Source: a virus (taxonomy: Duplodnaviria > Caudoviricetes). Taken from it: 24,626 bases of DNA. This document shows, piece after piece, positions 5,008 to 23,895 of this stretch. The notes below the pieces were generated by a model. It did not search any database. It saw only the letters and a list, made by a program, of their open reading frames with translations, and had not been told where the DNA came from. The translations under genes and the position numbers were made by a program. How positions within the stretch are numbered: the stretch's first letter is position 1; the number at the start of each line of letters is the position of its first letter. The DNA lies in the IMG/VR virus record IMGVR_UViG_3300032116_001258, positions 1-24,626 of that record. One strand, 5' to 3'.

Positions 5008-5162
5008 TTTTTAGCCTTTACTGGTTTAGCTGTCTTAGCTGCTTGTTTAAAAGCCTTAGCTGTTGGCGCACCGGCTGTGCCTGGTTTACGCATCTTCTCG
5101 CCTGATCCTTCGGCTATTCTTTTACGCTTTGCTGCGATATTGCTATAGAGACCCTGTTTCAT
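5004..5162 (-). CDS. Small Lys/Ala-rich basic phage protein (52 aa)
   Basis: MKQGLYSNIAAKRKRIAEGSGEKMRKPGTAGAPTAKAFKQAAKTAKPVKAKK; start reassigned to ATG 5162 because of the ATGA overlap with the upstream stop. Confidence 0.8.
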   Translation of the reverse strand: MKQGLYSNIAAKRKRIAEGSGEKMRKPGTAGAPTAKAFKQAAKTAKPVKAKK

Positions 5163-5530: not shown

Positions 5531-5539
5531 ATCGCACCC

Positions 5540-5564
5540 AAAAAAAAGCCCTATTTCTAGGGCT
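5540..5564 (-). terminator. Intrinsic terminator in the late leader (tR'-like)
   Basis: Minus strand AGCCCTA-GAAA-TAGGGCT followed by a T run: 7-bp stem with a GNRA loop. Confidence 0.85.
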
Positions 5565-5607
5565 ATGAAGAAGAATCACTAAATTCTGGGTGCAATGACC
5601 CAAGAAA

Positions 5608-5636
5608 ATTATACAAGTATTTTTTGGTTTTTACAA
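5608..5636 (-). promoter_or_regulatory. Sigma70 late promoter (pR'-like)
   Basis: TTGTAA (5636-5631), 17 nt spacer, TATAAT (5613-5608). Confidence 0.8.
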
Positions 5637-6416: not shown

Positions 6417-7096
6417 TTAAACCATTGTTGATGTAACTCCGGCATATTTTCTTTGATCCATTGCTCTGCCTCTCGATGGTTCTTGCCATGATCCATTCCG
6501 ATGGTCTGGCTGCCAACATGGTGGACATAAGACCGACTGACATAGTTTTTGTATCCGTTTGCCCTAATTTCTAGGCATTGAATGTCATCCGAAAACCAGT
6601 TGATAGGCTTGTAATCTACCCATTTGTCCTTATGTATGTAGCCGAATAGGGGAGAAATAATATCTGTAGGAATTATTTTTCTTTCTTCTACATATCGGAT
6701 ACCTTCCCTTTGCTTGAACTCTCGAATATTTTGGTATCCACGAACATAGTCTGATTTAGCCGATACCCAAGCAGTATCTTCTGGCAATAGTTCTACATCT
6801 GCTAACAGAAGTTCGTAGGAAGTAGGGGTTAATACTATGTCATCGTTGGCTACGATTACCTCGTCAAACATTTCGTAGGCACAATGGACTACTTCGTTGT
6901 ATGAATCCCCAAAATTATTGCCTTCATTCTCTATGTTTATGGTTCTATGCTTAGGAAGCCTTAGATCGCTTCCAGAGACGAAAACAGTAACATCTTGTGG
7001 CACATACTGGTCTATGCTTGCTAACAGCACAGGGAGGCATTTAGCAGTCTTAGTGGCTATTACGATTGGTACATCTCTTACAGACGAATCTTTCAT
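6413..7096 (-). CDS. GT2-family (GT-A) glycosyltransferase
   Basis: PIVIAT strand, FG.SYN, VIVANDD (DxD-like), NWFSDD and YVHHVGSQT. Start placed at ATG 7096 (TAATG overlap with the Q stop); the frame is open to 7129. Confidence 0.8.
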   Translation of the reverse strand: MKDSSVRDVPIVIATKTAKCLPVLLASIDQYVPQDVTVFVSGSDLRLPKHRTINIENEGNNFGDSYNEVVHCAYEMFDEVIVANDDIVLTPTSYELLLADVELLPEDTAWVSAKSDYVRGYQNIREFKQREGIRYVEERKIIPTDIISPLFGYIHKDKWVDYKPINWFSDDIQCLEIRANGYKNYVSRSYVHHVGSQTIGMDHGKNHREAEQWIKENMPELHQQWFK

Positions 7097-7172
7097 TAAT
7101 CCCATGATTGTATATCTCGAAAATCCCATTCTCGGTTGTCTTTCTCTCCTGACACCTTGAGCAGATCCGCAT
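7050..7172 (-). CDS. Small zinc-ribbon protein overlapping Q and GT2 (40 aa; could start at 7226)
   Basis: MRICSRCQERKTTENGIFEIYNHGINERFVCKRCTNRNSH: two CxxC pairs; not in the ORF track. Confidence 0.5.
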   Translation of the reverse strand: MRICSRCQERKTTENGIFEIYNHGINERFVCKRCTNRNSH

Positions 7173-7539
7173 AGTCTTTAGATTTGGCTTTCTTGTCGAG
7201 TTGGTCTTGGAGTCGCTTTTTAGCATTGTGTAGGTCTGTCTCGAATCGTTTTGTAGATATTCTTAGGTGGTGGGCTAGTTGATTCTGACTAGCGTATGGA
7301 TGGCTCACATACCGAGCTTTTAGTATCTTTCTAAGTTCTAAGGGTAAACCCTTTATTGTTTCTTCTATTAGTTCACCATCTCGATTATCGGGTTCGTAGT
7401 GTGGTTCTTCGGGTGCGTAGAGGTTGCCGAGTTCGGGAATGTAGTTCTTTTCAAATGATCGACAAGTAGAGTCTGGCTGCGGAATAACTGATCCAGAGAC
7501 ATACCAAGCCCAGTTTCGTAAGCGGTCATCGAGTGTCAT
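7096..7539 (-). CDS. Late-gene antiterminator Q-like / sigma4-type HTH regulator
   Basis: LDDRLRNWAW N-terminus, LP...R.IL.ARY....Q.A..L.IS...F...L..AK sigma4-like HTH, and position upstream of a promoter-terminator late leader. Confidence 0.68.
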   Translation of the reverse strand: MTLDDRLRNWAWYVSGSVIPQPDSTCRSFEKNYIPELGNLYAPEEPHYEPDNRDGELIEETIKGLPLELRKILKARYVSHPYASQNQLAHHLRISTKRFETDLHNAKKRLQDQLDKKAKSKDYADLLKVSGEKDNREWDFRDIQSWD

Positions 7540-7560
7540 TCACATTCCTGTGTTTAATGA

Positions 7561-7598
7561 ATTGTATAATTGTATACAAATTTTCTGTATTATTTCAA
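7561..7598. promoter_or_regulatory. Overlapping divergent promoters (Q leftward, phosphoesterase rightward)
   Basis: Minus: TTGAAA (7598-7593), 18 nt, TACAAT (7574-7569). Plus: TATAAT 7565-7570 and TATTAT 7588-7593. Tandem ATTGTATA x2 and palindrome TTGTATACAA. Confidence 0.5.
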
Positions 7599-7622
7599 TA
7601 TGTTAACTACTTTGGGATATTT

Positions 7623-8582
7623 ATGGCTAAAGCCTCCTGCACAGATGAAGAATTTATAGCACTTTGGAAACAATATCAATCTCCCGAAAAAGTTAGTCAT
7701 GCTATAAATCTTAGTGTTCGTAATACTTTAAAAAGACGCAGAACTATAGAACAGAAGTATGACATTATTTTAGATGCTTTGACTCCAAGTGGGATGCCTA
7801 AGATTTACATTCCCGATGAGCAAACGCAAGCCAATATCACAATTGACAATGGTGTAATCTTAGTCGGATCGGATTGCCACTATAACCCAGAGTACACTAC
7901 GACAGCCCATCGAGGATTTGTTCAGTTTGTAAAGTATCTGAAACCAAAGATTGTGATTCTCAATGGTGATATAGCTGACTTTGCTAGTATCTCAGCACAT
8001 CATCGCATTGGTTGGCAGAAAAGTCCTACAGTAAAAGAAGAACTAGACGAGATACAGGATAGACTTGGGGATATTGAAAAAGTAAGACCAGCAGGTTGTA
8101 AGTTAATGATTACGATTGGTAACCATGACTTACGATTCTCAGGCAAGCTGTCTAACATCCTACCTCAGTACGAGGGCATTAAGGGTTTTGATATTGCAGA
8201 TCACACTCCGCATTGGAAGTGGTACTGGTCTATTATGGTTAATCAGACCTGTATGATTAAACATCGTTGGCATAACGGCATCCATGCGGTCTACAACAAT
8301 ACAATGAAATCAGGTACAAGTTTCGTTTCAGGGCATCTACATTCTCTCAAGATAACACCTTGGACTGACTACACCGGCACACGATATGGTGTAGATACAG
8401 GAACTATGGCTTGTATTAAAGATAGCCAGTTCAGCTATACCGAAAATAATCCTGTCAACTGGCGGGCTGGTTTTGCAGTATTGACCTTTATCAATGGCAA
8501 ACTCATGCCTCCTGAACTTGCAGAAGTTATTAATGAGGATGAGGGTTTAATTTACTTTCGGGGTCAGTTGTTAAAAGTATGA
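7623..8582 (+). CDS. Calcineurin-like metallophosphoesterase with N-terminal HTH-like region
   Basis: SDCH, NGDIAD, GNHD, H and SGHLH motifs; start reassigned to ATG 7623 (MAKASC). Confidence 0.88.
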   Translation: MAKASCTDEEFIALWKQYQSPEKVSHAINLSVRNTLKRRRTIEQKYDIILDALTPSGMPKIYIPDEQTQANITIDNGVILVGSDCHYNPEYTTTAHRGFVQFVKYLKPKIVILNGDIADFASISAHHRIGWQKSPTVKEELDEIQDRLGDIEKVRPAGCKLMITIGNHDLRFSGKLSNILPQYEGIKGFDIADHTPHWKWYWSIMVNQTCMIKHRWHNGIHAVYNNTMKSGTSFVSGHLHSLKITPWTDYTGTRYGVDTGTMACIKDSQFSYTENNPVNWRAGFAVLTFINGKLMPPELAEVINEDEGLIYFRGQLLKV

Positions 8583-8932
8583 AGTTAACCTCCACTATCC
8601 TAAAGAATATCTACAATATGCTTGTGGTGTGTGAGCCTTTTGATAAATGGAATATGCCTTTAGCAGCCCAAATTCGGTTTGTAGTGGATGCAGATCCAGA
8701 TGTGATGGGAACTTATCTGTATCAGGATGATGAGAAATGGGAACACATCGTTACAATTTCTACTGCCAGGTGCGGATTCTTAGATACAGTTATTCGGACT
8801 ATGGCGCATGAAATGATCCATATGAGCTTTCATCGTAGGAAAGGTAATAAGTGGGCGCAACATGGAAAGGAGTTCCGTTCTCGCTGTTTTCTTGTGGGCA
8901 AAGAGCTGGGGCTAGATCCCTTAGAGTTGTAG
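8579..8932 (+). CDS. SprT-like zinc metalloprotease
   Basis: TMAHEMIH followed by HGKEF; ATGA coupling with the phosphoesterase. Confidence 0.8.
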   Translation: MKLTSTILKNIYNMLVVCEPFDKWNMPLAAQIRFVVDADPDVMGTYLYQDDEKWEHIVTISTARCGFLDTVIRTMAHEMIHMSFHRRKGNKWAQHGKEFRSRCFLVGKELGLDPLEL

Positions 8933-9565
8933 AGGTTTAAGGGAGTTATATTTCAAATAAGAACTATACCCTTCTTTAGGTAAATATGTTCTTCCGTTTT
9001 TAGTGTATCCGTTGCACCACCTTACAACTAAAGATTTGTCAATATTTAGTTGTTTTGCTGCCTCAACGCTTGATTCATAAGTTTTGCCTTTAATAACCCA
9101 AAACTTAGAAACTCTTTTATTTTTTTGATTTACTTTTGGCAAAGCCCATTTGCAATTGTTTTTTTCATAATTGCCATTGTTGTCAATTCTGTCAATCCAA
9201 TGCCCTTTAGGTTTTTTTCCCATGTCTGCATAAAATTCTTCAAATGATTTCCATTTGACTTCTATGCCTCTACCACCATAATTTTTGTATTCAGGCAAAT
9301 TTTTATTATTGCATCTACCAAGCATACCTCTCCAAGTTTTGTATGTTGGAGTATTGCTCATACCATGTGTAGTTACTCTTTTTATAAATTCAGCAGCTTT
9401 TTTACATCCACAAGATGTTGCCTTGCCATTTTTTAATGAACCCCTTTGTGTGTATGTCTCTGCACCACACTTACATATGCATCTGGTACTAGGATTTTTT
9501 CTATGAGGTATTAGCTCTAATACAGTCAAAAAACCATACTCATCGCCTACTTTTACTGCAGACAT
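8921..9565 (-). CDS. HNH-type homing endonuclease
   Basis: C.C.CG / SCGC N-terminus, Y.TW..M..RC......Y..YGGRGI, IDRIDNNGNYE..NC.WA, and a C-terminal NUMOD1-like HTH. Confidence 0.85.
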   Translation of the reverse strand: MSAVKVGDEYGFLTVLELIPHRKNPSTRCICKCGAETYTQRGSLKNGKATSCGCKKAAEFIKRVTTHGMSNTPTYKTWRGMLGRCNNKNLPEYKNYGGRGIEVKWKSFEEFYADMGKKPKGHWIDRIDNNGNYEKNNCKWALPKVNQKNKRVSKFWVIKGKTYESSVEAAKQLNIDKSLVVRWCNGYTKNGRTYLPKEGYSSYLKYNSLKPLQL

Positions 9566-9833
9566 TTAAATATCCTTCCTCAAGTAAAAAACGAAGTGTC
9601 TTGGCGTTGTTTCTAAACTGAAAGTCTAGTCTTTCGCCCTTTGACATCATTTTACCCTGATCGTATTCAAAATGGCAAGAATGGCACAAAAACATAATTG
9701 TTGCATCTGAGGCTTTTATTCCCATTCCTTTGCCAGTATTGCTGTGAGCTGCAACTATAGTTCCATCATTTACTCCACACTCTACACAAGATTGACCTCT
9801 AGCAATTTCTAGGAGTTTTTTGTTTCTATACAT
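9540..9833 (-). CDS. DUF1364/YbcO-like Zn-binding nuclease (nin-region type)
   Basis: RNKKLL..AR...C..CG....TIVAAHSN..GKGMGIKASD......C..CH...DQG. Confidence 0.8.
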   Translation of the reverse strand: MYRNKKLLEIARGQSCVECGVNDGTIVAAHSNTGKGMGIKASDATIMFLCHSCHFEYDQGKMMSKGERLDFQFRNNAKTLRFLLEEGYLNVCSKSRR

Positions 9834-9949
9834 TTTCTTAGGTATTCGTTTTCTTCTCTAGTTTTCTTTAGCAACTGAGATAAATGGTGTGCTGTTTTTA
9901 GCATCTCGTTATACCTATTTAGGTATAAGTTGTAATTTGTAGAGTCCAT
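9809..9949 (-). CDS. Small coiled-coil hypothetical protein (46 aa)
   Basis: MDSTNYNLYLNRYNEMLKTAHHLSQLLKKTREENEYLRKCIETKNS; TGATG coupling with the MTase stop. Confidence 0.6.
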   Translation of the reverse strand: MDSTNYNLYLNRYNEMLKTAHHLSQLLKKTREENEYLRKCIETKNS

Positions 9950-11010
9950 CAAACCAACTCCAATCCTTGTTGCTGTAATCGTTGATTCTGTAGAGTTTCA
10001 TAATCTTTATTAAGTTCGCACCCTATCCATTTACGCCCTAAATTTTGTGCAACTTGACCTGTAGTTCCGCTACCAAAGAAAGGATCTAGAACTATATCAC
10101 CAACTTTACTTCCTGCTAATATGCAAGGTTCTATTAGTTCTTGAGGATACACCGCAAAATGAGCTCCTGAATATGGTTTTACAGGCACAGACCAAACATC
10201 ACGCTTGTTTGCTTTTTCATATTCTTTGCTGACATTGCCTGATTTTGTAGCATATTTTGGGTCATCATTATCGCCATATTTATTGCCACCAAATCTTATT
10301 CCTTCGCTTTTTGTTGTTGCAGGTTCTTTAATAGATTCATGGTCAAAATAATACTTTTGATTTTTAGTTAGCAAAAATATATATTCATGGCTTTTTGTGC
10401 ATCTATCCTGAACAGACTCAGGCATTGGGTTTGGTTTGTGCCAAATAATGTCTTGCCTCAAATACCATCCAAAGTCTTGCAGGGCAAAGGCTAAACGCCA
10501 AGGCATACCCATTAAATCTTTTTGTTTATAGCCATTTCCAATTCTGTTTACTACTTTTTCTCGTGGGTTGCCAAATCCAGCCCTGCCGTTGTTTGATGCT
10601 TGACTGCTGTTATTAGCATAACTATCGCCAAGGTTTACCCATAAAGTACCATCGTCAGCAAGAATATCCCATACACAAGCAAATACTTCTACAAGATTGT
10701 CTATAAACTCTTGTGGTGTTTGTTCGTTTCCTATTTGCGAGTCTTTTCTAGTTGCTCCACATTTCAAACAATCGCCTGACGATATTGCTTTTTTATTGCT
10801 ACCCCTACCACCTTCATCAATAAAATTTCTATTATTTGAAATAACTAAACCTTCATGTTCGCATGAATTATCACCGCCAGCCCACTTGGCAGTTCCATAA
10901 TCTCTAAGACCATAGTAAGGTGGGCTAGTAACGCACATTTGCACCTTGACTCCATCTTTTGCCATCTGTCGCATGGAGTCTCGGCAATCTCCAAAATATA
11001 CTTTATTCAT
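9949..11010 (-). CDS. Orphan DNA N4-cytosine/N6-adenine methyltransferase (beta class)
   Basis: TSPPY motif IV precedes DPFFGSGTT motif I; IIWHKPNPMPES and HFAVYP. Confidence 0.95.
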   Translation of the reverse strand: MNKVYFGDCRDSMRQMAKDGVKVQMCVTSPPYYGLRDYGTAKWAGGDNSCEHEGLVISNNRNFIDEGGRGSNKKAISSGDCLKCGATRKDSQIGNEQTPQEFIDNLVEVFACVWDILADDGTLWVNLGDSYANNSSQASNNGRAGFGNPREKVVNRIGNGYKQKDLMGMPWRLAFALQDFGWYLRQDIIWHKPNPMPESVQDRCTKSHEYIFLLTKNQKYYFDHESIKEPATTKSEGIRFGGNKYGDNDDPKYATKSGNVSKEYEKANKRDVWSVPVKPYSGAHFAVYPQELIEPCILAGSKVGDIVLDPFFGSGTTGQVAQNLGRKWIGCELNKDYETLQNQRLQQQGLELV

Positions 11011-11093
11011 TATTTTGTACCAATCCGTATAGAAATGTAAACTATGAGAAACACAATCAATGCCCAGATGTAAACAAAGTCGCTATCGAGCAT
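11010..11093 (-). CDS. Single-TM micropeptide (27 aa)
   Basis: MLDSDFVYIWALIVFLIVYISIRIGTK; TAATG coupling to the MTase start. Confidence 0.55.
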   Translation of the reverse strand: MLDSDFVYIWALIVFLIVYISIRIGTK

Positions 11094-11409
11094 GATTATC
11101 TACAGATCGGTTAGTAGCCTCTAAACTGCGCCATATCTCGACTTTGAGTTGTGCAGCAGTCAGCATCCATTTGATCTTCTCCTCGCACTCTACAGCCTCT
11201 TTTAAGCCCTCTAGTAGCCCTATATACTCAGGATCAGCATAGGCATCTACCTCGGCTGCTGCGACAGACTTAGCCGATGACTTAGACATGAGAATACTGC
11301 GCTTAGACTTTAGGAAGTTCTCTAGGTAGATTCTGTTTGCCTTGGCTTTAGCAAAATCTCCTGAATACTTCATTATGTACTCTACTGCTTTTGTTGGTTC
11401 TATATCCAT
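11083..11409 (-). CDS. Helical phage protein, UvsY-like family
   Basis: AKAKA..IYLE.F.KSK...LM......AAAE..AYA.PEY...EE..KW.L.AA....EIWRS.EA.NR pattern. Confidence 0.6.
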   Translation of the reverse strand: MDIEPTKAVEYIMKYSGDFAKAKANRIYLENFLKSKRSILMSKSSAKSVAAAEVDAYADPEYIGLLEGLKEAVECEEKIKWMLTAAQLKVEIWRSLEATNRSVDNHAR

Positions 11410-11603
11410 GTTCCCCATTCCCCTTTATTACCTCTAGACCATTGTTCTCCGTACAGAACTAATAGGTCTTTATTTATCGTATGGTCTGATAAATACTTTC
11501 TCCACTTTGTCAGACCCCAAACTGCTCTCCACTTACAGAGTTGCCGTACTGCCGATCTTAGCCGAAAGTCTGGCTCTAAATTGGGCAAAAGTTTCTCCTG
11601 CAT
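11400..11603 (-). CDS. Conserved Trp-rich hypothetical protein (start uncertain)
   Basis: VRQL..WR...G...W......QW.RGNKGE.G.W pattern, which I recall following replication genes in similar phages. Confidence 0.6.
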   Translation of the reverse strand: MQEKLLPNLEPDFRLRSAVRQLCKWRAVWGLTKWRKYLSDHTINKDLLVLYGEQWSRGNKGEWGTWI

Positions 11604-11913
11604 ATGGGTTTAATCCTAGTTCTTTGCCCTTGGCTAAAGTAAGTTCATCGCTTGCATACCAAGGCAATGGTGGTCTTTTATTCTCTTTTTGCTCGATAAC
11701 AAGCTCATCCTCGAACCTTTCCTGATTCAGCCAGGTAGAGGCATGAGGGATAAACTCCCAATCAGTTCCCTTTGCTGCCCAGTATTTTCGATGCTCTACT
11801 ATTGCCTCTAGTGCTTTTTGTTGGTTGTCTAGACTTAGCTTTTCCCACGATCTTTTTGCTGTTAGCTTTCCGACCTTTTTGGGGTACTGCGCCCAAAACA
11901 AGTTGAACTCCAT
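11533..11913 (-). CDS. Replication-initiator C-terminal-domain-only protein
   Basis: F..FW..YPKKVGK..A...W.KL and IPHASTWLNQERFEDE motifs, normally the C-terminal part of phage O-like initiators; no N-terminal HTH. Confidence 0.72.
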   Translation of the reverse strand: MEFNLFWAQYPKKVGKLTAKRSWEKLSLDNQQKALEAIVEHRKYWAAKGTDWEFIPHASTWLNQERFEDELVIEQKENKRPPLPWYASDELTLAKGKELGLNPYAGETFAQFRARLSAKIGSTATL

Positions 11914-12064
11914 CTTTTTTCCCTTTCATGTTTTCTATTGCCTTCACCAACATACTTTCTAAACCATGTTGCAACAACATTTTATGACCCTGACTATCAA
12001 ATACTACCTCTACATTAGCAGAGCCATCTATGTTTTCTCTAATCCGTTTGATCTGTATCAGCAT
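11762..12064 (-). CDS. Hypothetical protein
   Basis: ORF in the coupled minus-strand chain; its 3' half overlaps the initiator-like gene. Confidence 0.5.
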   Translation of the reverse strand: MLIQIKRIRENIDGSANVEVVFDSQGHKMLLQHGLESMLVKAIENMKGKKDGVQLVLGAVPQKGRKANSKKIVGKAKSRQPTKSTRGNSRASKILGSKGN

Positions 12065-12305
12065 CCATCCATACCTTTATGTTTTGATTAAAGTCTGCTT
12101 TCATAAGAACTGGCTTATTTAAGCAATCTAACATTTTATACAAAGTCTGTTTTACTTCTTCTTTATCTTCTCCCATAACACCAACACCTCTTGCTGTGTA
12201 CAGATAAGGCTCATGGTTCTTGTCGTAAAAAACCTCGCACACCTCGACCCAAGGTTTTCCATCGTTTTCGTCTGAAAAGTCAACCACTCTATGATTCCAA
12301 TGCAT
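12039..12305 (-). CDS. Conserved hypothetical phage protein
   Basis: M.WNHRVV.......W....EVFYD motif; TAATG coupling. Confidence 0.72.
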   Translation of the reverse strand: MHWNHRVVDFSDENDGKPWVEVCEVFYDKNHEPYLYTARGVGVMGEDKEEVKQTLYKMLDCLNKPVLMKADFNQNIKVWMDADTDQTD

Positions 12306-12451
12306 TATTTACTCGCCAAGATGTAGAGACCCACATTACTAAACGCATATCCTGTATATACAACTGCCATAGGCACATTCCCTTTTAGGGCTTGTTCGCA
12401 CCCAATATAGGCATAGATCAAACCGGTAACAATAATAAGCCAAGCACTCAC
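12305..12451 (-). CDS. Small two-TM membrane protein (48 aa)
   Basis: GTG start; SAWLIIVTGLIYAYIGCEQALKGNVPMAVVYTGYAFSNVGLYILASK. Confidence 0.7.
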   Translation of the reverse strand: MSAWLIIVTGLIYAYIGCEQALKGNVPMAVVYTGYAFSNVGLYILASK

Positions 12452-12513
12452 TTTTTCTTTCTTAGCTCTATATGCTTTTGTAAAATGTACCAAAACTCAG
12501 ATTTGATAATCAT
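12448..12513 (-). CDS. Micropeptide (21 aa)
   Basis: MIIKSEFWYILQKHIELRKKK; ATGA and GTGA overlaps at both ends imply translational coupling. Confidence 0.5.
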   Translation of the reverse strand: MIIKSEFWYILQKHIELRKKK

Positions 12514-12806
12514 TTCTCACTCGCTTTCTTTAGTATTGCTCTAGCAAAGTCTAAAAACGGACTAGATGCACTTTCGCTAAAGTTCCAATTAAAAGTATTG
12601 AAATATACATCTTTAATTTGCTCATCACTTAACTCTTTTATTTGTGGTGTTTTTAGCAATTCTTCTTCCAGTTCATCAACATTTTTTGACAACTCCGCTA
12701 TGCGGTCTGCTTGATGGCGTAGCATATTTGCGGCATCTGTTAAATATTCCGCACTTTCTTTATATGCCCATTTATCTACAATATCTGCTAATTCGTATGC
12801 GTTCAT
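12510..12806 (-). CDS. Hypothetical phage protein
   Basis: MNAYELAD...AANMLR.QA..I..L...KELSDEQI...FARAILKKASEK; GGGAGGGG RBS before ATG 12806. Confidence 0.75.
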   Translation of the reverse strand: MNAYELADIVDKWAYKESAEYLTDAANMLRHQADRIAELSKNVDELEEELLKTPQIKELSDEQIKDVYFNTFNWNFSESASSPFLDFARAILKKASEK

Positions 12807-12920
12807 TTCCCCTCCCAAAGTGCATGAAACTTTAATAATCTTATACGAGTTCTACAAATAAGTCCTAAGTATTTTCCCTTATGTATCGTATTTGTTCCGT
12901 TAACTACCTTTAGGTATCTT

Positions 12921-13012
12921 TTATGTTACAAAATACAACTTGTATATAAATGTTAGTTTTCTATACATTTTGTTACAACATATATATATTTTGTATATAT
13001 TTAGACACAATA
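12921..13012. other. AT-rich tract with TGTTACA / TGTATATA repeats (candidate DNA unwinding element)
   Basis: Strongly A/T-rich, with (TA)n runs and two copies each of TGTTACA and TTGTATATA. Confidence 0.5.
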
Positions 13013-13013
13013 A

Positions 13014-13034
13014 CCCTAACCCGTTAACCCACCC
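13014..13034 (-). other. Canonical G-quadruplex motif
   Basis: Minus strand GGG-T-GGG-TTAAC-GGG-TTA-GGG. Confidence 0.6.
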
Positions 13035-13327
13035 ACCATAAGGGTAGCTAACATCTTTATCAGTCAATATGGACTTGTTAGTCCTATAGGGTATTCTCTC
13101 CTCCCACCTTGCCATCCATTTATATCAGCTTGTAACTCAATATAAATTTCGCTCGACAACTACTTGGGTATACCTGTTTACACAGGAGACTGTTTATCCT
13201 TTTGCTTTCGCTACTTGGGGTGCGGGTTAAACACCGATCTGACTGTTTGATAGCCGTCTTTGCCTTTATCTTTTCTTCCACGCTGCCGATCTAAGCACTA
13301 TGTTTCGCCTGGAGTGCGAGCAGAAAT
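13014..13327 (-). ncRNA. Putative structured ncRNA / origin-associated RNA
   Basis: Non-coding stretch with multiple hairpins (CCUGU-GUAA-ACAGG, GC-GAAA-GC, GGUGU-7-GCACC, GGACU-AACA-AGUCC, AUUUAUAU..AUAUAAAU) and a closing stem pairing 13317-13327 with 13146-13155. Confidence 0.5.
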
Positions 13328-13333
13328 AGAAAA

Positions 13334-13451
13334 ACCCCATAAGGTAGCTCTAAGTTGATACCACTTAGTAAATTCCCATGCCAGTATTTACTAAATGCTC
13401 AAAGCTACCCTATAGGGTCTAGGCATGGAACCAAAGCTACACAGGTATCAA
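13334..13451 (-). ncRNA. c4/CI-like antisense RNA with two upstream target sites
   Basis: 16-bp outer helix (13403-13418 with 13334-13349, two G-U pairs on the minus strand), 9-bp inner hairpin whose loop GGCAUGG is complementary to CCAUGCC at 13422-13428, and GGUAUCAA complementary to UUGAUACC at 13444-13451; followed by a U run. Confidence 0.68.
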
Positions 13452-13463
13452 TCTGCTAATGTA

Positions 13464-13492
13464 ATTATAAATCAAAACTCAAATTCTTTAAA
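13464..13492 (-). promoter_or_regulatory. Sigma70 promoter driving the c4-like / structured RNA
   Basis: TTTAAA (13492-13487), 17 nt spacer, TATAAT (13469-13464). Confidence 0.6.
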
Positions 13493-13783
13493 GTCGTACC
13501 TCCCATTGGGTTTCTTAAACCAGCCTATTACGATAATTCTCCACTTAGACCTAATAAGCTCAGGGAGATATTCGCTTTCTTGGATCTTCTTAATTCTGGA
13601 TGACATATTACTTTTGGATGTCATTTGTATGCCTAAAGACTCTCCGTTTCCAATAGCCACCATGTCGAGTATGCCAAACATATCTTTTTTTCGTTTTGTA
13701 AAAGAGTTGTAGGATTCGACCACTTCGCATTTATATCCCAAAGACTCGTATAGAGCCTTTGTACGCTGATTGTAGTTAGGCAA
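13472..13783 (-). CDS. PD-(D/E)XK nuclease, Holliday-junction-resolvase-like
   Basis: L...GY....VE.....DMFG.LD.VAI......IQ.TS motif; TTG start overlapping the cro stop. Confidence 0.68.
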   Translation of the reverse strand: MPNYNQRTKALYESLGYKCEVVESYNSFTKRKKDMFGILDMVAIGNGESLGIQMTSKSNMSSRIKKIQESEYLPELIRSKWRIIVIGWFKKPNGRYDFKEFEF

Positions 13784-13973
13784 GGTCTTCTTCTGTTATC
13801 TTGCCAAACGAGGCTTCTATGATGGCTTCGTGGTGTTTCTTGGGGATGCTGTTCCGCATTGACCAGGCATAGACAGTTACATACTTCATGCCTAATTTGT
13901 CGGCTATATCTTTGTAGCTACCAAACACTTCTAGTAATTTATCAAAGTGTTGGGTTTTCGCAACAGTATCCAT
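13776..13973 (-). CDS. Cro-like HTH repressor
   Basis: FGS...IA..LG.....V..W.....IP.......I..AS.GKIT..DL pattern; first gene of the leftward operon. Confidence 0.8.
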   Translation of the reverse strand: MDTVAKTQHFDKLLEVFGSYKDIADKLGMKYVTVYAWSMRNSIPKKHHEAIIEASFGKITEEDLA

Positions 13974-13985
13974 ATCTTCTCCTTT

Positions 13986-14086
13986 TGTAGAACATTGATT
14001 CTACACCCAAAATAGGTAAATGTAGATATTAGGGTATATCCCTAGTAATTATTCTACATTTATTCTACATTTATGCTATTCTACAT
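13986..14086. promoter_or_regulatory. Divergent early control region with TTCTACA repeats and a TAGGG-N5-CCCTA palindrome
   Basis: TATTCTACAT at 14050, 14061 and 14077; TGTAGAA-N6-TTCTACA at 13986-14005; TAGGGTATATCCCTA at 14030-14044; leftward -10 TAGAAT and rightward extended -10 TGcTATTCT. Confidence 0.65.
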
Positions 14087-14125
14087 ATAGGCGATGTTTG
14101 CTTATTTCTTTGAAAGGGAAATCAA

Positions 14126-14332
14126 ATGTACGAAAAAGCTAAAACAGAATTTGATAGGTTACCTCATGTAAATAGCGATGACCTTGATGGCACTATTGAC
14201 CATCTAGTGTTTCGCGCACAACATGAATTAGACCTTGAGGATGAAGGCGAAAACGAATACATTGACTATGTATTGCCAAAATCTGATTATGTAAAACTTA
14301 CCAAGTTTGTTAAAAAATGGAAAGGTAAATAA
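14126..14332 (+). CDS. Hypothetical protein (first early gene)
   Basis: ORF with AAGGGA RBS; TAATG-coupled to the next ORF. Confidence 0.7.
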   Translation: MYEKAKTEFDRLPHVNSDDLDGTIDHLVFRAQHELDLEDEGENEYIDYVLPKSDYVKLTKFVKKWKGK

Positions 14333-14445
14333 TGAAAGACTTTAAAGGCGAATGGAAAGATATATTTTGGGGTGCTGTGGCAGCTATCCTTATGCTTGCA
14401 CCAGCAATGGTTGTGTATGTTTGGAAAACAGGGGGTGTGTCGTGA
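14332..14445 (+). CDS. Single-TM small protein (37 aa)
   Basis: MKDFKGEWKDIFWGAVAAILMLAPAMVVYVWKTGGVS; coupled at both ends. Confidence 0.65.
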   Translation: MKDFKGEWKDIFWGAVAAILMLAPAMVVYVWKTGGVS

Positions 14446-14735
14446 GTAAATATGATAGTTGGTTAGAAGAACCATACCGGCAAATGGCGCAAGCTGATGA
14501 CCATCAGGAGTATGTATGGACTACCTATATGAAGCCAGGTAAGCCATGCGATCCGATGGACTTGGATAACTTCCAAGAGTATCTTGCAGATGCAACTGCG
14601 GATTATGCTGGTGCTGAGAAGTGGAAGAATCTGCGAGAGTATGCAGATAAAGGTGAATGGGAAAAGTTTGGTCGGGCTATTTATTTTCTAGTCCACGACC
14701 ATATTGAAAACAAATTGATTGCGGAGGAAGAATAA
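14442..14735 (+). CDS. Hypothetical acidic protein
   Basis: GTG start (GTGA overlap), MSKYDSWLEEPY...; the longer start in the track is unlikely. Confidence 0.7.
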   Translation: MSKYDSWLEEPYRQMAQADDHQEYVWTTYMKPGKPCDPMDLDNFQEYLADATADYAGAEKWKNLREYADKGEWEKFGRAIYFLVHDHIENKLIAEEE

Positions 14736-15268
14736 TGTCTAAATATTTAGAACTTAGAAATGTAGATGTTTCGGACAAGATCGAGAAGAAGAATGGTTTG
14801 TCTTATCTGTCTTGGGCATGGGCTGTAGACACATTGCTACAACACGATCCACAAGCTACTTGGTCGTATGGTCAGCCTGTATTGTTTGGTGAGACTGTAA
14901 TGGTGTTCTGCACAGTTAATGCGTTTGGTAAGTCGATGACAGCGCAGTTGCCGGTCATGGACTATCGCAACAAGGCAGTACCGAACCCAGATGCATTTGC
15001 CGTAAATACTGCTATGCAAAGGGCTTTGACAAAAGCAATCGCACTCCATGGATTGGGACTTTCACTTTATGTCGGAGAGGATTTGTGGGATGATATAGAG
15101 GTAGATTCTACAAAGTTTGTAGAAAAGATATTAGGTTCTCAGGACATCCCAGAGCTAAAGGTGAACTTTGCCCAAGCGTTTAAGGAAGTGTCTAAGGACA
15201 AAGAGGCGATGAAGAAGGTAAACGATGCCAAAGAAAAGCGGAAGGCAGAACTGAGTGAAACTAGCTGA
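14735..15268 (+). CDS. Sak3/DUF1071 (Rad52-like) single-strand annealing protein
   Basis: LSYLSWAWA, LPVMDYRNKA and NTAMQR.L.KAIALHGLGL.LY.GED. Confidence 0.88.
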   Translation: MSKYLELRNVDVSDKIEKKNGLSYLSWAWAVDTLLQHDPQATWSYGQPVLFGETVMVFCTVNAFGKSMTAQLPVMDYRNKAVPNPDAFAVNTAMQRALTKAIALHGLGLSLYVGEDLWDDIEVDSTKFVEKILGSQDIPELKVNFAQAFKEVSKDKEAMKKVNDAKEKRKAELSETS

Positions 15269-15452
15269 TGTGCAGCCAGACAATGTGTGCTTCGAGTGCG
15301 GTAAGGCTTGGGGTACACATCCACTAAAGAGTTCGGAGAACCACAGATCATGGATCGACCAATGCGATGTATGTTTAAAGCTCACAGCCGTAGTAGATGT
15401 TTCGGAATATGGTTATATAAAGGAAGGATGGGATGGAAAAAAAGTGGTGTAG
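15255..15452 (+). CDS. Small Zn-binding hypothetical protein
   Basis: CFECG..WG and CDVC pairs. Confidence 0.65.
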   Translation: MKLADVQPDNVCFECGKAWGTHPLKSSENHRSWIDQCDVCLKLTAVVDVSEYGYIKEGWDGKKVV

Positions 15453-15585
15453 TTCTTGTCAGGCTGATAGACCAAAAGCTGGTTTTAAGTTGGTAGCAGC
15501 AGGTAGTCGGGTTCGCCCAGTTATGAGATGGAAATGCGAACATTGTTTAAAACGAGAAGCGGAGAGAAAATATGCAAGAAAATGA
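15433..15585 (+). CDS. Zinc-ribbon protein (50 aa, not in ORF track)
   Basis: MEKKWCSSCQADRPKAGFKLVAAGSRVRPVMRWKCEHCLKREAERKYARK. Confidence 0.65.
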   Translation: MEKKWCSSCQADRPKAGFKLVAAGSRVRPVMRWKCEHCLKREAERKYARK

Positions 15586-15781
15586 TTTTATTTACACACC
15601 AAGTTCTACAGATATTACGATTCGGTGGCGCAAGATTTATGGCTATGTACCGGCAAGCGAACAGGCTAAGTACCAAAAGAAATGGGCAGAGTTTCGCGCA
15701 TTGTCGGCAAGGACTTTAGAGAATGTAAATGTGCCAGAGATACCAGGAGTTGTGCAATGGAAAAAGTGGCAAAAATCCTAG
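15572..15781 (+). CDS. Hypothetical protein
   Basis: F.YTPS.TD....W.K.YG.VP.SE motif; GGAGAG RBS. Confidence 0.65.
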   Translation: MQENDFIYTPSSTDITIRWRKIYGYVPASEQAKYQKKWAEFRALSARTLENVNVPEIPGVVQWKKWQKS

Positions 15782-15873
15782 TAGAGATAGGTGTTTACAT
15801 TTTGTTACCTTTTGCGATAATAAAGGTGTCTTGGGAATTGGCAACTTCTTGGATTGAGGAATTAATAAAATGA
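15757..15873 (+). CDS. Small hydrophobic protein (38 aa)
   Basis: AGGAG RBS then MEKVAKILVEIGVYILLPFAIIKVSWELATSWIEELIK. Confidence 0.55.
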   Translation: MEKVAKILVEIGVYILLPFAIIKVSWELATSWIEELIK

Positions 15874-16094
15874 GAAACAAGCATTGTATGGATGCTTTCT
15901 ATAGAACCCTAAAGGAAGTAGATATTCCTTTTGGGCAGTCTATGATCTGCGAGCATTTCTTTGCAGCAGGTTGGGATGCAGCCATTGATGCCTTGTCTCT
16001 CGCATATCAGAGGCAGTTTGAAAATGATGGAGTCGATACACAGCTTATTCGCAGAGACCCCCAAGAACCTCCAGCCGATGACGATAAAGAATGA
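15870..16094 (+). CDS. Hypothetical protein
   Basis: F.AGWDAA motif; ATGA coupling. Confidence 0.65.
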   Translation: MRNKHCMDAFYRTLKEVDIPFGQSMICEHFFAAGWDAAIDALSLAYQRQFENDGVDTQLIRRDPQEPPADDDKE

Positions 16095-16272
16095 TTGGTA
16101 TCCTGTATGCTTTCATTCCAAATCAGATTATAGAAAATGGCAGTATTACAGGAGGGGATCAGGAGAGAGAGTTACAGTCTGTGATGACTGTAGTGATGAG
16201 TACCAAAAGAAAATGAAAGGGGAGAATCGGTGTTTTATAGCAGAGGCTATGCAACGATCAAAATATGTCTGA
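16078..16272 (+). CDS. Cys-containing hypothetical protein
   Basis: P.CF.S...Y..W.......C.DC..EYQ..M....RC pattern; start reassigned to ATG 16078. Confidence 0.62.
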   Translation: MTIKNDWYPVCFHSKSDYRKWQYYRRGSGERVTVCDDCSDEYQKKMKGENRCFIAEAMQRSKYV

Positions 16273-16432
16273 ACCAGTATCTAAAGCAGTAATGACAGTA
16301 ACAGAGGTTGCTCCATTTCGGTTTGCTATCGAGATTGAGGGATCAGATTTATCTTTAGAAGTTTCACAAATTATGGTAAAGTTTCTGAATGACTGCTTAC
16401 AGCAGATTCATGCGGATCAAAAAATCCATTGA
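16265..16432 (+). CDS. Hypothetical protein (55 aa, not in ORF track)
   Basis: MSEPVSKAVMTVTEVAPFRFAIEIEGSDLSLEVSQIMVKFLNDCLQQIHADQKIH fills the gap between neighbours. Confidence 0.55.
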   Translation: MSEPVSKAVMTVTEVAPFRFAIEIEGSDLSLEVSQIMVKFLNDCLQQIHADQKIH

Positions 16433-16442
16433 AAGGGATTGT

Positions 16443-17051
16443 ATGGAACAAAGAACAGAAGAATGGTTTAGTGCCAGACTAGGCAAAGTTACCGCTAGTC
16501 GGGTCGCAGATGTCTTAGCCAAGATTAAGTCTGGCGAATCGGCAAGTCGTAAGAACTACAAGATGGAATTAGTGGTTCAGCGATTGACCGGCAAAGCAGG
16601 AGAGTCGTTTACCAACGCTGCGATGGAATGGGGTACAGAGCAAGAGCCATTCGCTAGGATGGCATACGAGGCTCATACAGGCACTTTTGTAAAGGAGGAG
16701 GGGTTCGTAGACCATCCCACGATAGAAGGCTTTGGATGCTCTCCTGATGGCATTGTAGGGGAAGGTTTAATCGAGATTAAGTGTCCGAATACCGCTAACC
16801 ATATTGAGACAGTCTTGGAGAACAAAGCTCCAAGTAAATATATCCCACAGATGCAATGCCAGATGGCTTGTACAGGCGCGAAATGGTGCGACTTTGTATC
16901 ATTCGATCCTAGAGTGCCAGAGGACTTGCAGTTGTTTGTAGTACGAGTCGAGAGGGATCAGGAGTATATCGACTCGATGGAAGTAGAAGTAAAGCAGTTT
17001 TTAAGCGAGGTCTTAGACCTATTTAACCAACTAAAAGCGAGGCAGAAATGA
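16443..17051 (+). CDS. YqaJ/lambda-type exonuclease
   Basis: EQRTEEWF.ARLGKVTAS, WG.E.EP.AR, SPDG, LIEIKCP and Q.Q.QM motifs. Confidence 0.93.
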   Translation: MEQRTEEWFSARLGKVTASRVADVLAKIKSGESASRKNYKMELVVQRLTGKAGESFTNAAMEWGTEQEPFARMAYEAHTGTFVKEEGFVDHPTIEGFGCSPDGIVGEGLIEIKCPNTANHIETVLENKAPSKYIPQMQCQMACTGAKWCDFVSFDPRVPEDLQLFVVRVERDQEYIDSMEVEVKQFLSEVLDLFNQLKARQK

Positions 17052-17296
17052 CCTATGAAATGAAAGATGGCAGCTTTAGTCTATTTAAGAACGACAAAAA
17101 GCTCACAGAGAAACACCCCGATTACAAGGGGTCGATTAAGATTAACGGAGTTGAGCATTGGTTTGATGCCTGGCTAAAGGAAGGCAAGAAAGGGAAGTTC
17201 TTATCGGGTCGTATTGGTGATCCGAAACAGAAAGGCTTTACTCCCAAGGGCGATGATGAGATGCCTAAGATTAACGATGATGATTTTGCTTTCTAG
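17048..17296 (+). CDS. Small single-stranded DNA-binding protein
   Basis: LFKND.K....HPDYKG.I.I.G.E.W..AW.K....G.FLS and an acidic DDDFAF tail; follows annealase and exonuclease. Confidence 0.7.
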   Translation: MTYEMKDGSFSLFKNDKKLTEKHPDYKGSIKINGVEHWFDAWLKEGKKGKFLSGRIGDPKQKGFTPKGDDEMPKINDDDFAF

Positions 17297-17305
17297 GAGA
17301 AAGAC

Positions 17306-17440
17306 ATGAAAAAGATTATTTTAGGATTGTTAACATATTTGTTAATAGGTAGTGCATATGCTTGTACAACACAGACACTAATTGTCGGTGGTAAGCTACA
17401 AGTCTGCACTATTTGTGGAACAGTAGTTAGCTGTATGTAA
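17306..17440 (+). CDS. Secreted Cys-rich micropeptide (44 aa, not in ORF track)
   Basis: AGGAGA RBS; MKKIILGLLTYLLIGSAYA signal peptide followed by CTTQTLIVGGKLQVCTICGTVVSCM. Confidence 0.7.
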   Translation: MKKIILGLLTYLLIGSAYACTTQTLIVGGKLQVCTICGTVVSCM

Positions 17441-17520
17441 TCCCCGATGAGATCGGCATTAGTGGCGCAATGCCACACCCTTTCAAGGAGTGCCACTCCC
17501 CTACCGATCAGGGTGGCTTT

Positions 17521-17952
17521 ATGAATGGTTCTAATACCTATAGCGAAAGACAAAAGGTAAAGAATAGGGCTGAGTTTTTATTTGAGTATTACTGCGCTGA
17601 AAAAGACTATAACTTGGTGAGATGTGGGTTTGATGAGAAGAACAAGAATGTAGATAACTTTTATTATCTAAACCCTGTATTAAGAAATCTACCCGATTAT
17701 GTAGTCAATACCGCTAATGGCACTTGGGTAGTGATGGTGAAAGGCACAGCGAATATTAAGCAGAAAGAGATTGATCTTTTGCCAAAGCTGATTGAGTGCT
17801 TTCATAGTGATCGAGCAAAACTTATTTATGCGTTTTGTTTTTTGGGGAAAGAACCAATATTAGCTTCTCCACAAAAAGTAAATACTCTGTATAAAAATGC
17901 CACAGATAAGAAATGGCACGATGGAGTTGTTTATCGGTCATTGGAGGTATAA
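17521..17952 (+). CDS. PD-(D/E)XK restriction-endonuclease-like protein
   Basis: E..FE.YC, LPDYVV....VMVKG (variant of PD..(D/E)xK); start reassigned to ATG 17521. Confidence 0.55.
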   Translation: MNGSNTYSERQKVKNRAEFLFEYYCAEKDYNLVRCGFDEKNKNVDNFYYLNPVLRNLPDYVVNTANGTWVVMVKGTANIKQKEIDLLPKLIECFHSDRAKLIYAFCFLGKEPILASPQKVNTLYKNATDKKWHDGVVYRSLEV

Positions 17953-18411
17953 AGCTCTCTCGTCTTTTCGTCTAGTAGTCAGTCCTTTTAGTTCCTTACC
18001 GCCTGCCTTGTTCCACTTTAGAAACTCCTCGGCAGCAGACTCAAACTCACCCCTATTGTGTTTCATCCGAAGGGTAGAATTTTGGAGATTACCGAGTCCA
18101 ACATTGAAGGCGAAAGACACAAGTGCGCCAAACCGACCAGGAGTAAGCCCACTAGGACATAATCGTTGTACTCCGCTTTCAAACCGCGCCAAATCCTCTG
18201 CCAGCAGTTTGTCCACTTCTTCCATAGAGAAAGTTCTGTTCCAGCCTTCTGGGATTGGTAAATTTTTTCGTTCTTCAAGTTTCACCTTTATATGGTTAGG
18301 GTCGATAACTCTCCCGACTCCTACAGTCCAAAGTAAAGCTGGACACCGATAAGGGGTAGTTCTGACTCCCTCATGGTGCTTAATCATCTCAATAACTTTA
18401 TGGTCAATCAT
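17938..18411 (-). CDS. Endolysin, GH24 lysozyme
   Basis: IK.HEG....PY.CPA..WT.GVG, ALVSF.FN.G.GN...STL, and W.KAGG..L.GL..RR..E..L. Confidence 0.95.
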   Translation of the reverse strand: MIDHKVIEMIKHHEGVRTTPYRCPALLWTVGVGRVIDPNHIKVKLEERKNLPIPEGWNRTFSMEEVDKLLAEDLARFESGVQRLCPSGLTPGRFGALVSFAFNVGLGNLQNSTLRMKHNRGEFESAAEEFLKWNKAGGKELKGLTTRRKDERALYLQ

Positions 18412-18893
18412 TTCTTAGCAAAGGCTTGCGTACCGAACCAGAAAGCAATAATAGAGGCTAGGATCTGCATCTCGTCTGCATCAAACACCAATGGGATAGC
18501 TTCTGCAAACGCTGCACCGCTAGACCAAGCCCACCAGATAGAGGCAATGTCTACAATAATTAAGAGTAAAACGAATAGGTAGGTAACGACAGGGCGAACC
18601 GAGGCTCGTAGGTTAATGATCCATTGGCTTGCACCCTTACCGATTTCTATATCGTGTTGGTACATGGCTGTTCGTTCTTGTGCTTGGGTCTGCATTTGGA
18701 CTTGGTCTGTGCGTATCTCCTCGACTCTAGCCTGTGCTGCGTAACCTCTCTCTAGCATTTGGAGTTCTCGTTCCGTTTGCATACGAGCTAGTTCTAATTC
18801 GTGAGACTTATCGGACTTGTCTTGGAAGAAGTCTAATAGTTTAGGCAGTCCACCCATCAGGAAGGACAAAGCTGTAGAGATGAGTGTAAACAT
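18408..18893 (-). CDS. Holin-like membrane protein (3TM/GTA-holin-like)
   Basis: W...LRASVRP.VTY and II.FWFG motifs with TM segments; ATGA-coupled to the endolysin. Confidence 0.7.
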   Translation of the reverse strand: MFTLISTALSFLMGGLPKLLDFFQDKSDKSHELELARMQTERELQMLERGYAAQARVEEIRTDQVQMQTQAQERTAMYQHDIEIGKGASQWIINLRASVRPVVTYLFVLLLIIVDIASIWWAWSSGAAFAEAIPLVFDADEMQILASIIAFWFGTQAFAKK

Positions 18894-18896
18894 TAT

Positions 18897-19349
18897 TTAC
18901 CCTTTATGACCCCAAGTAAGATACCAGGCAACGATTGCAGCGAGTGCATAGCACATATACATAACTCTACGCACTTCTGCCAAATCTTTTCTAAATTCAT
19001 TTTCTATTTCCTTCTCTTGTTTTTCAATCTTTGCTTTAATAGTTTCTACTTCTGACCATCTCTTTTGACCATGATGTTTTACAAAGTCTTTCTTGACCTG
19101 TTCTTCTTTTAGTCTTATATCTTCTTGTTTTTGCCATTGAATCATGGCTCGTTTGAAATACTGCTCTTTTAGGACTTCTGCTTCTCTGATCTGCCTTCTG
19201 CGTTCTAATGCTTTTTGTTGTGCTACCGAGGCTGCTTCTTTTTGAACATCCTCGATAGACGATCCGATAGTTTTACCGGCTTCTTTGCCTGTCTTTACGC
19301 TTTCGCTAAAAGACTTTGCGCCCTCCAAAAACCCGAATTGGTCTGACAT
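18897..19349 (-). CDS. Coiled-coil protein with C-terminal TM
   Basis: Charged helical body with a hydrophobic YMCYALAAIVAWYLTW tail; lies in the lysis cluster. Confidence 0.65.
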   Translation of the reverse strand: MSDQFGFLEGAKSFSESVKTGKEAGKTIGSSIEDVQKEAASVAQQKALERRRQIREAEVLKEQYFKRAMIQWQKQEDIRLKEEQVKKDFVKHHGQKRWSEVETIKAKIEKQEKEIENEFRKDLAEVRRVMYMCYALAAIVAWYLTWGHKG

Positions 19350-19357
19350 ACATAGGA

Positions 19358-19573
19358 TTACTTTCTAAAGAATAAGTCTGCTAACCAAGCTACAAAGCCA
19401 CCAAAGACAGAGCAAGCCCCCATAATTGCCCAAAGAGATCCTTTAGACCTCTCTGCCATAGCGACTAACTTCTTAATATCAGATTCCATGCTATCTACTT
19501 TTTCTTGCAGATGCTCGACTTGGGCTACTAGACCACCAAATTTGAATGGATCAAATTCAAACTTATCGTTCAT
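19358..19573 (-). CDS. Small coiled-coil + TM protein (XhlA-like lysis-region protein)
   Basis: DPFKFG.L.A.V..L...V..ME.D.K.L...A.RSKG..W followed by a TM segment. Confidence 0.65.
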   Translation of the reverse strand: MNDKFEFDPFKFGGLVAQVEHLQEKVDSMESDIKKLVAMAERSKGSLWAIMGACSVFGGFVAWLADLFFRK

Positions 19574-19716
19574 CCTAACCTCCGATTACTTTGCGACTTT
19601 TTTGCAGGACTTTTCCGTTTAGTCGCGACTTTTTTGCAAGGTTTAGGTATAGAAAAGACTATGCTTGCTTTATTAACATAGCCAAATTTGTCTAGCACCC
19701 AATCGATAATAAACAT
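19570..19716 (-). CDS. Small basic protein (48 aa)
   Basis: MFIIDWVLDKFGYVNKASIVFSIPKPCKKVATKRKSPAKKSQSNRRLG; coupled at both ends. Confidence 0.55.
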   Translation of the reverse strand: MFIIDWVLDKFGYVNKASIVFSIPKPCKKVATKRKSPAKKSQSNRRLG

Positions 19717-19785
19717 TTAATCCTCTTTTTTCTCTAAAGACTCTTTTAACATCTTCAAAAACGCTTCTTTACCTACTTGTAGCTG
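19717..19785 (-). pseudogene. Start-less C-terminal remnant of a small tail-associated gene
   Basis: QLQVGKEAFLKMLKESLEKKED* begins 2 nt after the tail-fibre stop, with an in-frame stop just upstream. Confidence 0.55.
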
Positions 19786-19787
19786 CC

Positions 19788-20831: not shown

Positions 20832-20843
20832 GATTTTCCTTAA

Positions 20844-22760: not shown

Positions 22761-22761
22761 A

Positions 22762-23892: not shown

Positions 23893-23895
23893 AAT

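Follow-up and report, generated by a model that had tools for sequence, protein, structure and literature searches.

The window, which is the whole 24.6-kb stretch of DNA analysed here, is a piece of a tailed-phage genome with terminase-like, lysis and recombination genes according to its open reading frame (ORF) list and PHROG matches. Its relatives are freshwater phages with records of 34-36 kb. On the minus strand, a cro-like HTH repressor gene of 65 aa (13776..13973; PHROG transcriptional repressor, E 1e-4, with Pfam YdaS/P22_Cro under the cut-off) is followed by a 103-aa gene (13472..13783), which the ORF list and comparison of relatives identify as the fixed left border of a slot. The 103-aa product yielded zero library matches; from a motif, it is presumed to be nuclease-like. 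The slot lies downstream of these two genes, with an initiator-like gene a further 1.56 kb downstream. The original prediction assigned the region to the lambdoid O/ori position downstream of cro, in agreement with the placement of the slot behind the cro-like gene and with the full initiator gene that sister phages have there. The region was also considered to be the largest non-coding stretch, and the ORF list is consistent with this, the gap at 12819-13471 containing only two short ORFs. A protein-coding reading was rejected: neither ORF has a PHROG match and neither is retained across the module types described below. No tRNA or tmRNA was identified, and the Rfam search proposed with the original prediction returned only chance-level rows for the region and for the window.

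Three TATTCTACAT repeats at 14050-14092, between divergent promoters, are likely Cro operators; TGTAGA-type sites also occur near 12855. The divergent operons of the window have no cI-like gene between them. In L031, L041 and L050 a 415-aa gene, judged by eye to encode a nucleotide-sugar dehydratase, forms an insert of ~1.25 kb after the 103-aa gene, between it and the promoter, and the cassette is intact. Elsewhere in the window, a 357-aa virion-region protein (2987-4060, minus strand) carries an H-G-T..F-D....G.G.Y-F motif, which we take to recall the ADP-ribosyltransferase-like domains of polyvalent proteins.

Transcription of the slot is predicted to start near 13457 from a sigma70-type promoter, TTTAAA-17-TATAAT, at 13492-13464 on the minus strand. 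The relatives inspected support this element of the original prediction, a TAtaaT-like -10 hexamer being located at the same place after the stop of the upstream gene; promoter-like sites as such are not enriched relative to shuffles (10 vs 11.5). The leader that follows (13457-13330) is, by its strong covariation, a c4/CI-like antisense attenuator. It comprises, all on the minus strand, a target hairpin GCAG/CUGU (13441..13456) supported by covariation, with a1 = UUGAUACC (13451-13444) in its loop; a second target, b1, CCAUGCC (13422..13428); and a c4/CI-like RNA (13330..13418), defined by alignment and fold, in which a long hairpin carries an a' bulge (13362-13355), an apical loop b' (13382-13376) complementary to b1 in a cognate-pairing test, and a U-run terminator. 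The hairpin and U-run (13418-13334) gave a minimum free energy z of -5.3, equalled by 0 of 150 shuffles. The c4-like element is therefore upheld by its fold and strong covariation, although the Rfam c4 covariance model does not match, with no row at E up to 5 for the whole window or up to 10 for 601 nt.

A total of 81 loci yielded 40 distinct full-length copies of one c4-like type, of which 25 were aligned, leaving out an L012-like divergent subgroup and near-duplicates. The structure is paired in 99.2% of the cells of this alignment (39-54% in slid controls), and 20 of 43 pairs show changes on both sides. For a1:a', all seven pairs are kept in 25/25 sequences and six vary on both sides; the a1 heptamer takes 10 different sequences among the 25, each complementary to its own a' bulge. 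For b1:b', with 16 distinct loops, the mean number of Watson-Crick pairs was 6.2 for cognate and 3.8 for non-cognate combinations. Two variable single-stranded elements thus complement an upstream target on the same strand, as in c4/CI systems. The covariation shows two mutually exclusive predicted folds of the leader, one with a1:a' and b1:b' and no terminator, the other with the long terminator hairpin. On folding of successive prefixes, a1:a'/b1:b' are predicted at lengths of up to 112 nt, and from 118 nt onwards the terminator hairpin takes over. This is the behaviour of an attenuator, which a c4 copy supplied in trans would push to termination. The fold differs from the three-stem form of c4, being a long hairpin with a bulge and an apical loop. 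A second downstream target (a2b2/seqC) was sought in the window, where neither a second exact a1 site nor paired a1/b1-like sites at one mismatch were found. The c4 profiles gave no detection in 31 of 82 module-bearing slots; in the type B loci inspected the module lies directly behind the promoter, while L393, L395 and L434 have other c4-like elements recognised by eye. A second c4-like type (c4b, ~156 nt), with specificity elements that are also variable, lies upstream of modules C and B in L015/L037/L075 and L397.

The attenuator is followed by a non-coding module, which in the window consists of a 54-nt head common to type A modules (13267..13320, minus strand), with a 4-bp hairpin that covaries among 21 type A sequences, joined to a body of type W (13006..13266, minus strand). 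Only identical copies of W were found, in two viral contigs and one from a metagenome; of the 25 metagenome matches the remaining 24 were to unrelated sequence, and no homologue was present in the phage collections. The covariation anticipated for the region was obtained for the c4-like part, and also for modules A and B of relatives, but not for W, for which no divergent homologue was found. Comparison of W and type A with 72,556 plasmids by blastn gave no match to the ColE1 or MRB origins or to other plasmids. The description of the region as dense in hairpins was correct for the c4 part and did not hold for the body: the fold of the whole 471 nt (z -4.0) owes its stability to the first 130 nt (z -5.3), and the body alone (13266-13005) gave z -1.5, with 9 of 150 shuffles as good. 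Both of the expected GNRA loops were located, GC-GAAA-GC at 13211-13204 and CCUGU-GUAA-ACAGG at 13186-13173, together with the two segments of the predicted long-range closing stem, UUAACCCG (13230-13223) and its complement CGGGUUAG (13023-13016). The mini-hairpin d(GCGAAAGC) is reported in PMC13037366 to mark the phage G4 origin. The proposed link to such a single-strand origin, in which the 8-mer would belong to a conserved primase hairpin, was not sustained: the 8-mer is present, but occurs again at 19299-19306 inside a gene and is absent from eight representatives of the other module types.

The module ends in four GGG tracts, GGGTGGGTTAACGGGTTAGGG (13034-13014, minus strand), the sole four-tract G-quadruplex pattern in the window; such a pattern occurred in 9 of 2000 shuffles of the region. 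In isolation the tracts fold as a quadruplex; the minimum free energy structure of the whole body with quadruplexes allowed places them in helices, where they can pair with 13230-13223 and 13050-13042. Similar G tracts occur at the 3' end of both E and both F modules, which end in G4-7-N2-3-G5-7, and in 1/63 A, 0/31 B and 0/15 C. The predicted pattern is real; a general role as an anchor is not supported, the common modules A, B and C being near-devoid of G tracts. The AT-rich DNA that was expected next is also present: no other 90-mer of the window is as AT-rich as 12914..13003 (16.7% GC, against 41% overall), which is a candidate unwinding element. A low-GC window follows the module in 52/63 A, 29/31 B and 15/15 C and is weak or absent in L393, L395 and L434; it is soft evidence, as the next promoter also lies there. 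At 12905..12916 a near-palindrome, TACCTAAAGGTA, recurs after A, C, D and W modules, the motif class being found in 28/63 A, 11/15 C and 2/31 B. One metatranscriptome contig of run X1 spans 13006-13445, but all four runs consist of contigs, and in 27 of the 30 bins of 4700-24600 the depth of X1 is as great or greater, so that this contig is evidence of neither transcription, nor RNA ends, nor abundance.

Among 88 distinct related slots, from loci fetched by protein queries, 82 hold exactly one of seven mutually exclusive non-coding modules of 200-300 bases (A 41, B 25, C 11, E 2, and one each of W, D and F). Five of the remaining six hold a long initiator-type gene instead. The module models were built from the same loci, those of D, E, F and W from one or two sequences; the relatives do not represent independent events, and distant phages may hold undetected module types. 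Module A is a ~270-nt family with no Rfam match, in which 13 of 25 predicted pairs show changes on both sides (21 sequences chosen from 30 representatives) and G-U outnumbers A-C by 28 to 3. Pseudoknots in type A were considered and rejected; complementary segments exist, but pairing was 5.33 for cognate and 5.39 for non-cognate combinations. Module B corresponds to the orphan Rfam motif Betaproteobacteria-1 (RF02932), matched by 11 of 20 related loci at 84-107 bits against a gathering score of 49.4 bits, and 8 of its 25 predicted pairs show changes on both sides. The window did not match RF02932, and W has no detectable similarity to Betaproteobacteria-1. In L054 (4450-4527) and other type B loci, the motif extends ~80 nt past the 120 positions of the Rfam model, and a 3' hairpin around AGG..GGCUAGG is conserved there. 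Modules C, D, E and F are unclassified. Module E (L058:4325-4505, L392:7440-7620) has a pyrimidine tract, TTCCAC boxes and G7-N2-3-G7, a run pattern like that of CSB II, and by eye resembles an inverted initiator-gene linker. Module F (L393:7407-7650, L399:9376-9620) has a common GGTGCAAwTCC..GAA..ATCC core and a 3' G-run, and is found in one phage with a short initiator and in another of the helicase-primase kind.

The initiator-like gene of the window (11533..11913, minus strand) encodes 126 aa and lacks the N-terminal DNA-binding domain. Its match to phrog_270 (positions 178-259 of 383, E 4e-17) is confined to the C-terminal domain of phage initiators, and BFVD gave replisome organizer/RepA-like matches. 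PDB and Pfam sequence searches with this protein were blank, and a PDB fold search with its model and its last domain gave no significant match; ESM Atlas rows (Phg_2220_C 0.89, DnaT 0.82-0.84) are leads only. An extra helix-loop-helix C-terminal domain of ~47 aa (11536..11676, minus strand) is conserved in short initiators and absent from the clade's long forms. Its best PDB row, likewise a lead only, was T4 EndoVII (TM 0.64, E 3.0), which hints at a nucleic-acid-binding helix-extension-helix fold. An added domain of some short initiators might in its own right bind the origin as DNA.

The presence of a module follows the form of the initiator. A module lies upstream in 53/53 distinct short initiators with at least 3.5 kb of upstream sequence, in 0/3 long forms of the same domain family, and in 1/12 distinct full-length DUF1376-type initiators, where it is 7 kb away. 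The script itself found none among the latter twelve; the single case is the B copy of L403, which had been dropped by a length filter and was added. A whole-record search of 17 further records with long initiator-type genes, many of them fragments, revealed neither B nor A, the latter sought with a single blast query. Stand-alone genes for the DUF1376 N-terminal domain (106-115 aa) occur at L397:8622-8939, L403:6985-7317 and L442:6007-6351, with or without an adjoining full-length paralogue.

Two backbones display the exchange directly. L393 (c4, F and a 130-aa initiator) and L395 (c4, A and a short initiator) are 83-93% identical on both flanks to L394, which has a 253-aa DUF1376 initiator and a 181-aa gene. 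L434 (c4-like, A and 121 aa) is 88-93% identical on both flanks to L444/L420, with a 257-aa and a 104-aa gene. In each case the records differ only in having either a c4-like element, module and short initiator or a short element, long initiator and second gene (the loader); L394 and L408 are of DUF1376 type by profile, and the long genes of L412, L420 and L444, and the loader labels, were assigned by eye. In L408, L412, L420 and L444 the 115 nt that follow the nuclease-like gene hold a small conserved leader (GGCTAGGGTAGCTCCCGAAAAG...) with internal complementarity, upstream of the long initiator-type genes.

Five relatives that are 99-100% complete gave no match to DUF1376, HTH_36 over its cut-off, DnaB or tyrosine integrase (5/5), in searches that detected DUF1376 in four of five records chosen for it as a positive control. 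As in ColE1 and MRB, no origin-binding Rep is encoded, within profile sensitivity, and the initiator that remains is truncated. In the complete genome MW202674 a c4-like element and module A occur with an initiator of 124 aa, and the annotation includes no polymerase, primase or helicase. G026, a circular genome with direct terminal repeats (CheckV 72%), has a c4-like element and module A, and no initiator, primase, helicase or polymerase match in the 39 of 55 ORFs scanned, the rest being mostly the virion cluster. In G025, with module B, the only replication-related match in 35 of 58 ORFs scanned was a 106-aa N-terminal-domain paralogue. In L185, module B is followed by genes for an unrelated O-like protein of 102 aa, with the C-terminal part only, and for DUF6475; in L172, L195 and L214 it lies directly behind helicase and short primase genes. 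A counterexample is L310, in which module A accompanies a full-length 229-aa DUF1376 initiator. In G024, module B is ~7 kb from an intact initiator, and the close relative G015 has no B. There were 20 B-like matches among 121 genome loci, and one 1.5-Mb Burkholderia replicon has two copies. By eye, six Caballeronia/Paraburkholderia loci with B have no replication gene nearby among the genes listed. Copies of the motif in these hosts (L163, L167, L169, L215, L216 and L220) lie behind a TATACT hexamer amid genes judged by eye to be for stress and DNA repair, a possible domestication.

The swaps, the contrast of 53/53 with 1/12 and the want of DUF1376 in 5/5 near-complete relatives provide strong comparative support for the original suggestion in so far as it has a non-coding element stand in for the origin-binding domain of the initiator. 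The 53/53 vs 1/12 pairing, the backbone swaps and the circular genome with a module and no detectable initiator further indicate that the slot is probably the replication origin. Strand skew at fourfold sites in seven genomes gave no consistent leading-strand signal. The promoter, switch and module sit where sister phages have a full initiator gene, which suggests that the transcript likely opens or primes this origin. The resulting proposal of a transcript-dependent origin, in which a folded RNA would keep the DNA open or act as primer as in ColE1, is given an even chance. R-loop origins are found in T4, and ColE1 uses Pol I/PriA. In the proposed scheme, a genome of matching specificity, either resident or co-infecting, would supply processed c4 RNA that binds a1/b1 in trans and favours termination at 13330, so that copy number would be limited or kin excluded. 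Read-through would yield an RNA of ~450 nt, the 3' part of which may remain on the template at the junction of G-rich and AT-rich DNA, about 13030-13000, as a ColE1-style R-loop, from which host Pol I/RNase H and the restart primosome would take over. The short initiator would be a helper that is not always needed, its retained domain recruiting the host helicase and its added small domain binding RNA or the displaced strand.

Much of this evidence would be expected equally if the slot were an origin acting as DNA, with transcription merely supercoiling or opening it as at lambda ori. On this account, folds in the displaced strand would be primase/PriA assembly signals, or the added C-terminal domain would bind DNA. 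Swaps and exclusivity are the same under either account, and the DNA-level one is favoured by module E, which is not obviously folded and whose C/G runs and purine tracts suggest, by eye, the linker of an initiator gene in inverted form, by the position of B after primase genes and by the recurrent near-palindrome after the module. In addition, PMC5737381 warns that computation cannot tell such motifs from ssDNA. Against the DNA-level account, the loci inspected have a promoter, and in many cases an attenuator acting at the RNA level, immediately upstream; ornate folds of 200-280 nt with many G-U pairs would also exceed the needs of known ssDNA signals. A DNA-level origin is considered unlikely; the transcript-dependent and DNA-level readings jointly have a good, though not overwhelming, probability.

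Equally unlikely is an origin elsewhere, with the module a trans-acting non-coding RNA of the early operon (an anti-defence decoy, antirepressor-like output or protein scaffold). The control of downstream effectors by c4/CI systems (PMC4825925, PMC5320573) is consistent with this, as are the distance of B from replication genes in G024 and the Burkholderiaceae loci and the presence of both A and a full initiator in L310. However, it leaves unexplained the 53/53 pairing with initiators lacking the N-terminal domain, the co-replacement of initiator and loader, and the absence of two modules from any one slot. It is very improbable that the module is a 5' leader controlling expression of the short initiator. 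The initiator gene does start soon after the module in L329, L338, L395 and L434, but 0.6-2.5 kb of variable genes intervene in the window's clade, G025 and G026, each with a module, lack such a gene, and B lies downstream of helicase-primase genes.

Returning to the transcript-dependent origin, its extension to a whole group of tailed phages is put at slightly less than an even chance. Such a group, a widespread one, would have replaced lambda-type O/P by at least seven unrelated folded RNAs, Betaproteobacteria-1 among them, which would be interchangeable in opening or priming the origin and gated by a hypervariable c4 attenuator; some of its genomes would need no initiator protein and others would retain a minimal RNA-binding helicase recruiter. 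Should the transcript-dependent origin be right, RNA-initiated replication arose several more times, in abundant freshwater phages; a single genomic slot is held now by structured RNAs and now by a protein domain; and in phages that lack an integrase, c4-type RNAs become linked to the control of copy number or the exclusion of kin. The orphan motif Betaproteobacteria-1 gains a directly testable function and five or six unclassified RNA families are added. Compact origins with many natural compatibility groups would also be available, given 10 a1 heptamers and 16 loops among 25 sequences. No description of the arrangement was found in a survey, mainly of open-access papers and including the main texts of PMC5737381 and PMC10690425, on Betaproteobacteria-1, RNA at phage origins and ColE1-like tailed phages.

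Several known systems resemble parts of the locus. ColE1 and MRB (pB1067) represent two plasmid families in which replication proceeds from RNA without Rep (PMC3035462). ColE1 RNA II/RNA I and MRB share with the slot, as proposed here, a long origin-proximal transcript, an absent or dispensable Rep and a small kissing-loop RNA that sets incompatibility. In contrast to these plasmids, the slot belongs to a tailed phage and has no plasmid sequence match, several unrelated folds interchange, a truncated initiator is usually present, and the control RNA is on the same strand inside the leader and not antisense. No plus-strand promoter-like site for a convergent RNA I counterpart was found in 13000-13470; the c4-like RNA would take that role. 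In the P4 CI and P1/P7 c4 systems, too, a small RNA from the same strand carries two specificity elements, both variable and single-stranded, with a complementary upstream target and premature termination ahead of replication functions (PMC4825925, PMC5320573). Here the fold is a two-arm hairpin with a bulge in place of three stems, there is neither an Rfam c4 match nor a second target, and the output appears to be RNA, not kil/icd/ant. ARRPOF, GEBRO and PAGEV, described in PMC5737381 as motifs tied to plasmid replication, are likewise structured and 220-350 nt long, and the region that contains ARRPOF suffices for replication without Rep; they are from plasmids of other phyla, and Rfam gave no match to them here. 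Mitochondrial CSB II forms a hybrid G-quadruplex (PMC3488243), and W, E and F likewise have G runs, on the strand that is transcribed, where the primer is predicted to end; such tracts are near-absent from A, B and C, and those of W can pair in helices. In 25 of the 88 related loci the slot is filled by Betaproteobacteria-1, to which W has no detectable similarity. With respect to lambdoid O-P modules (DUF1376/HTH plus a C-terminal domain, with the origin in the gene), the N-terminal domain, internal repeats and loader gene have gone and a small C-terminal domain has been added, while the slot is the same and the C-terminal domain is homologous.
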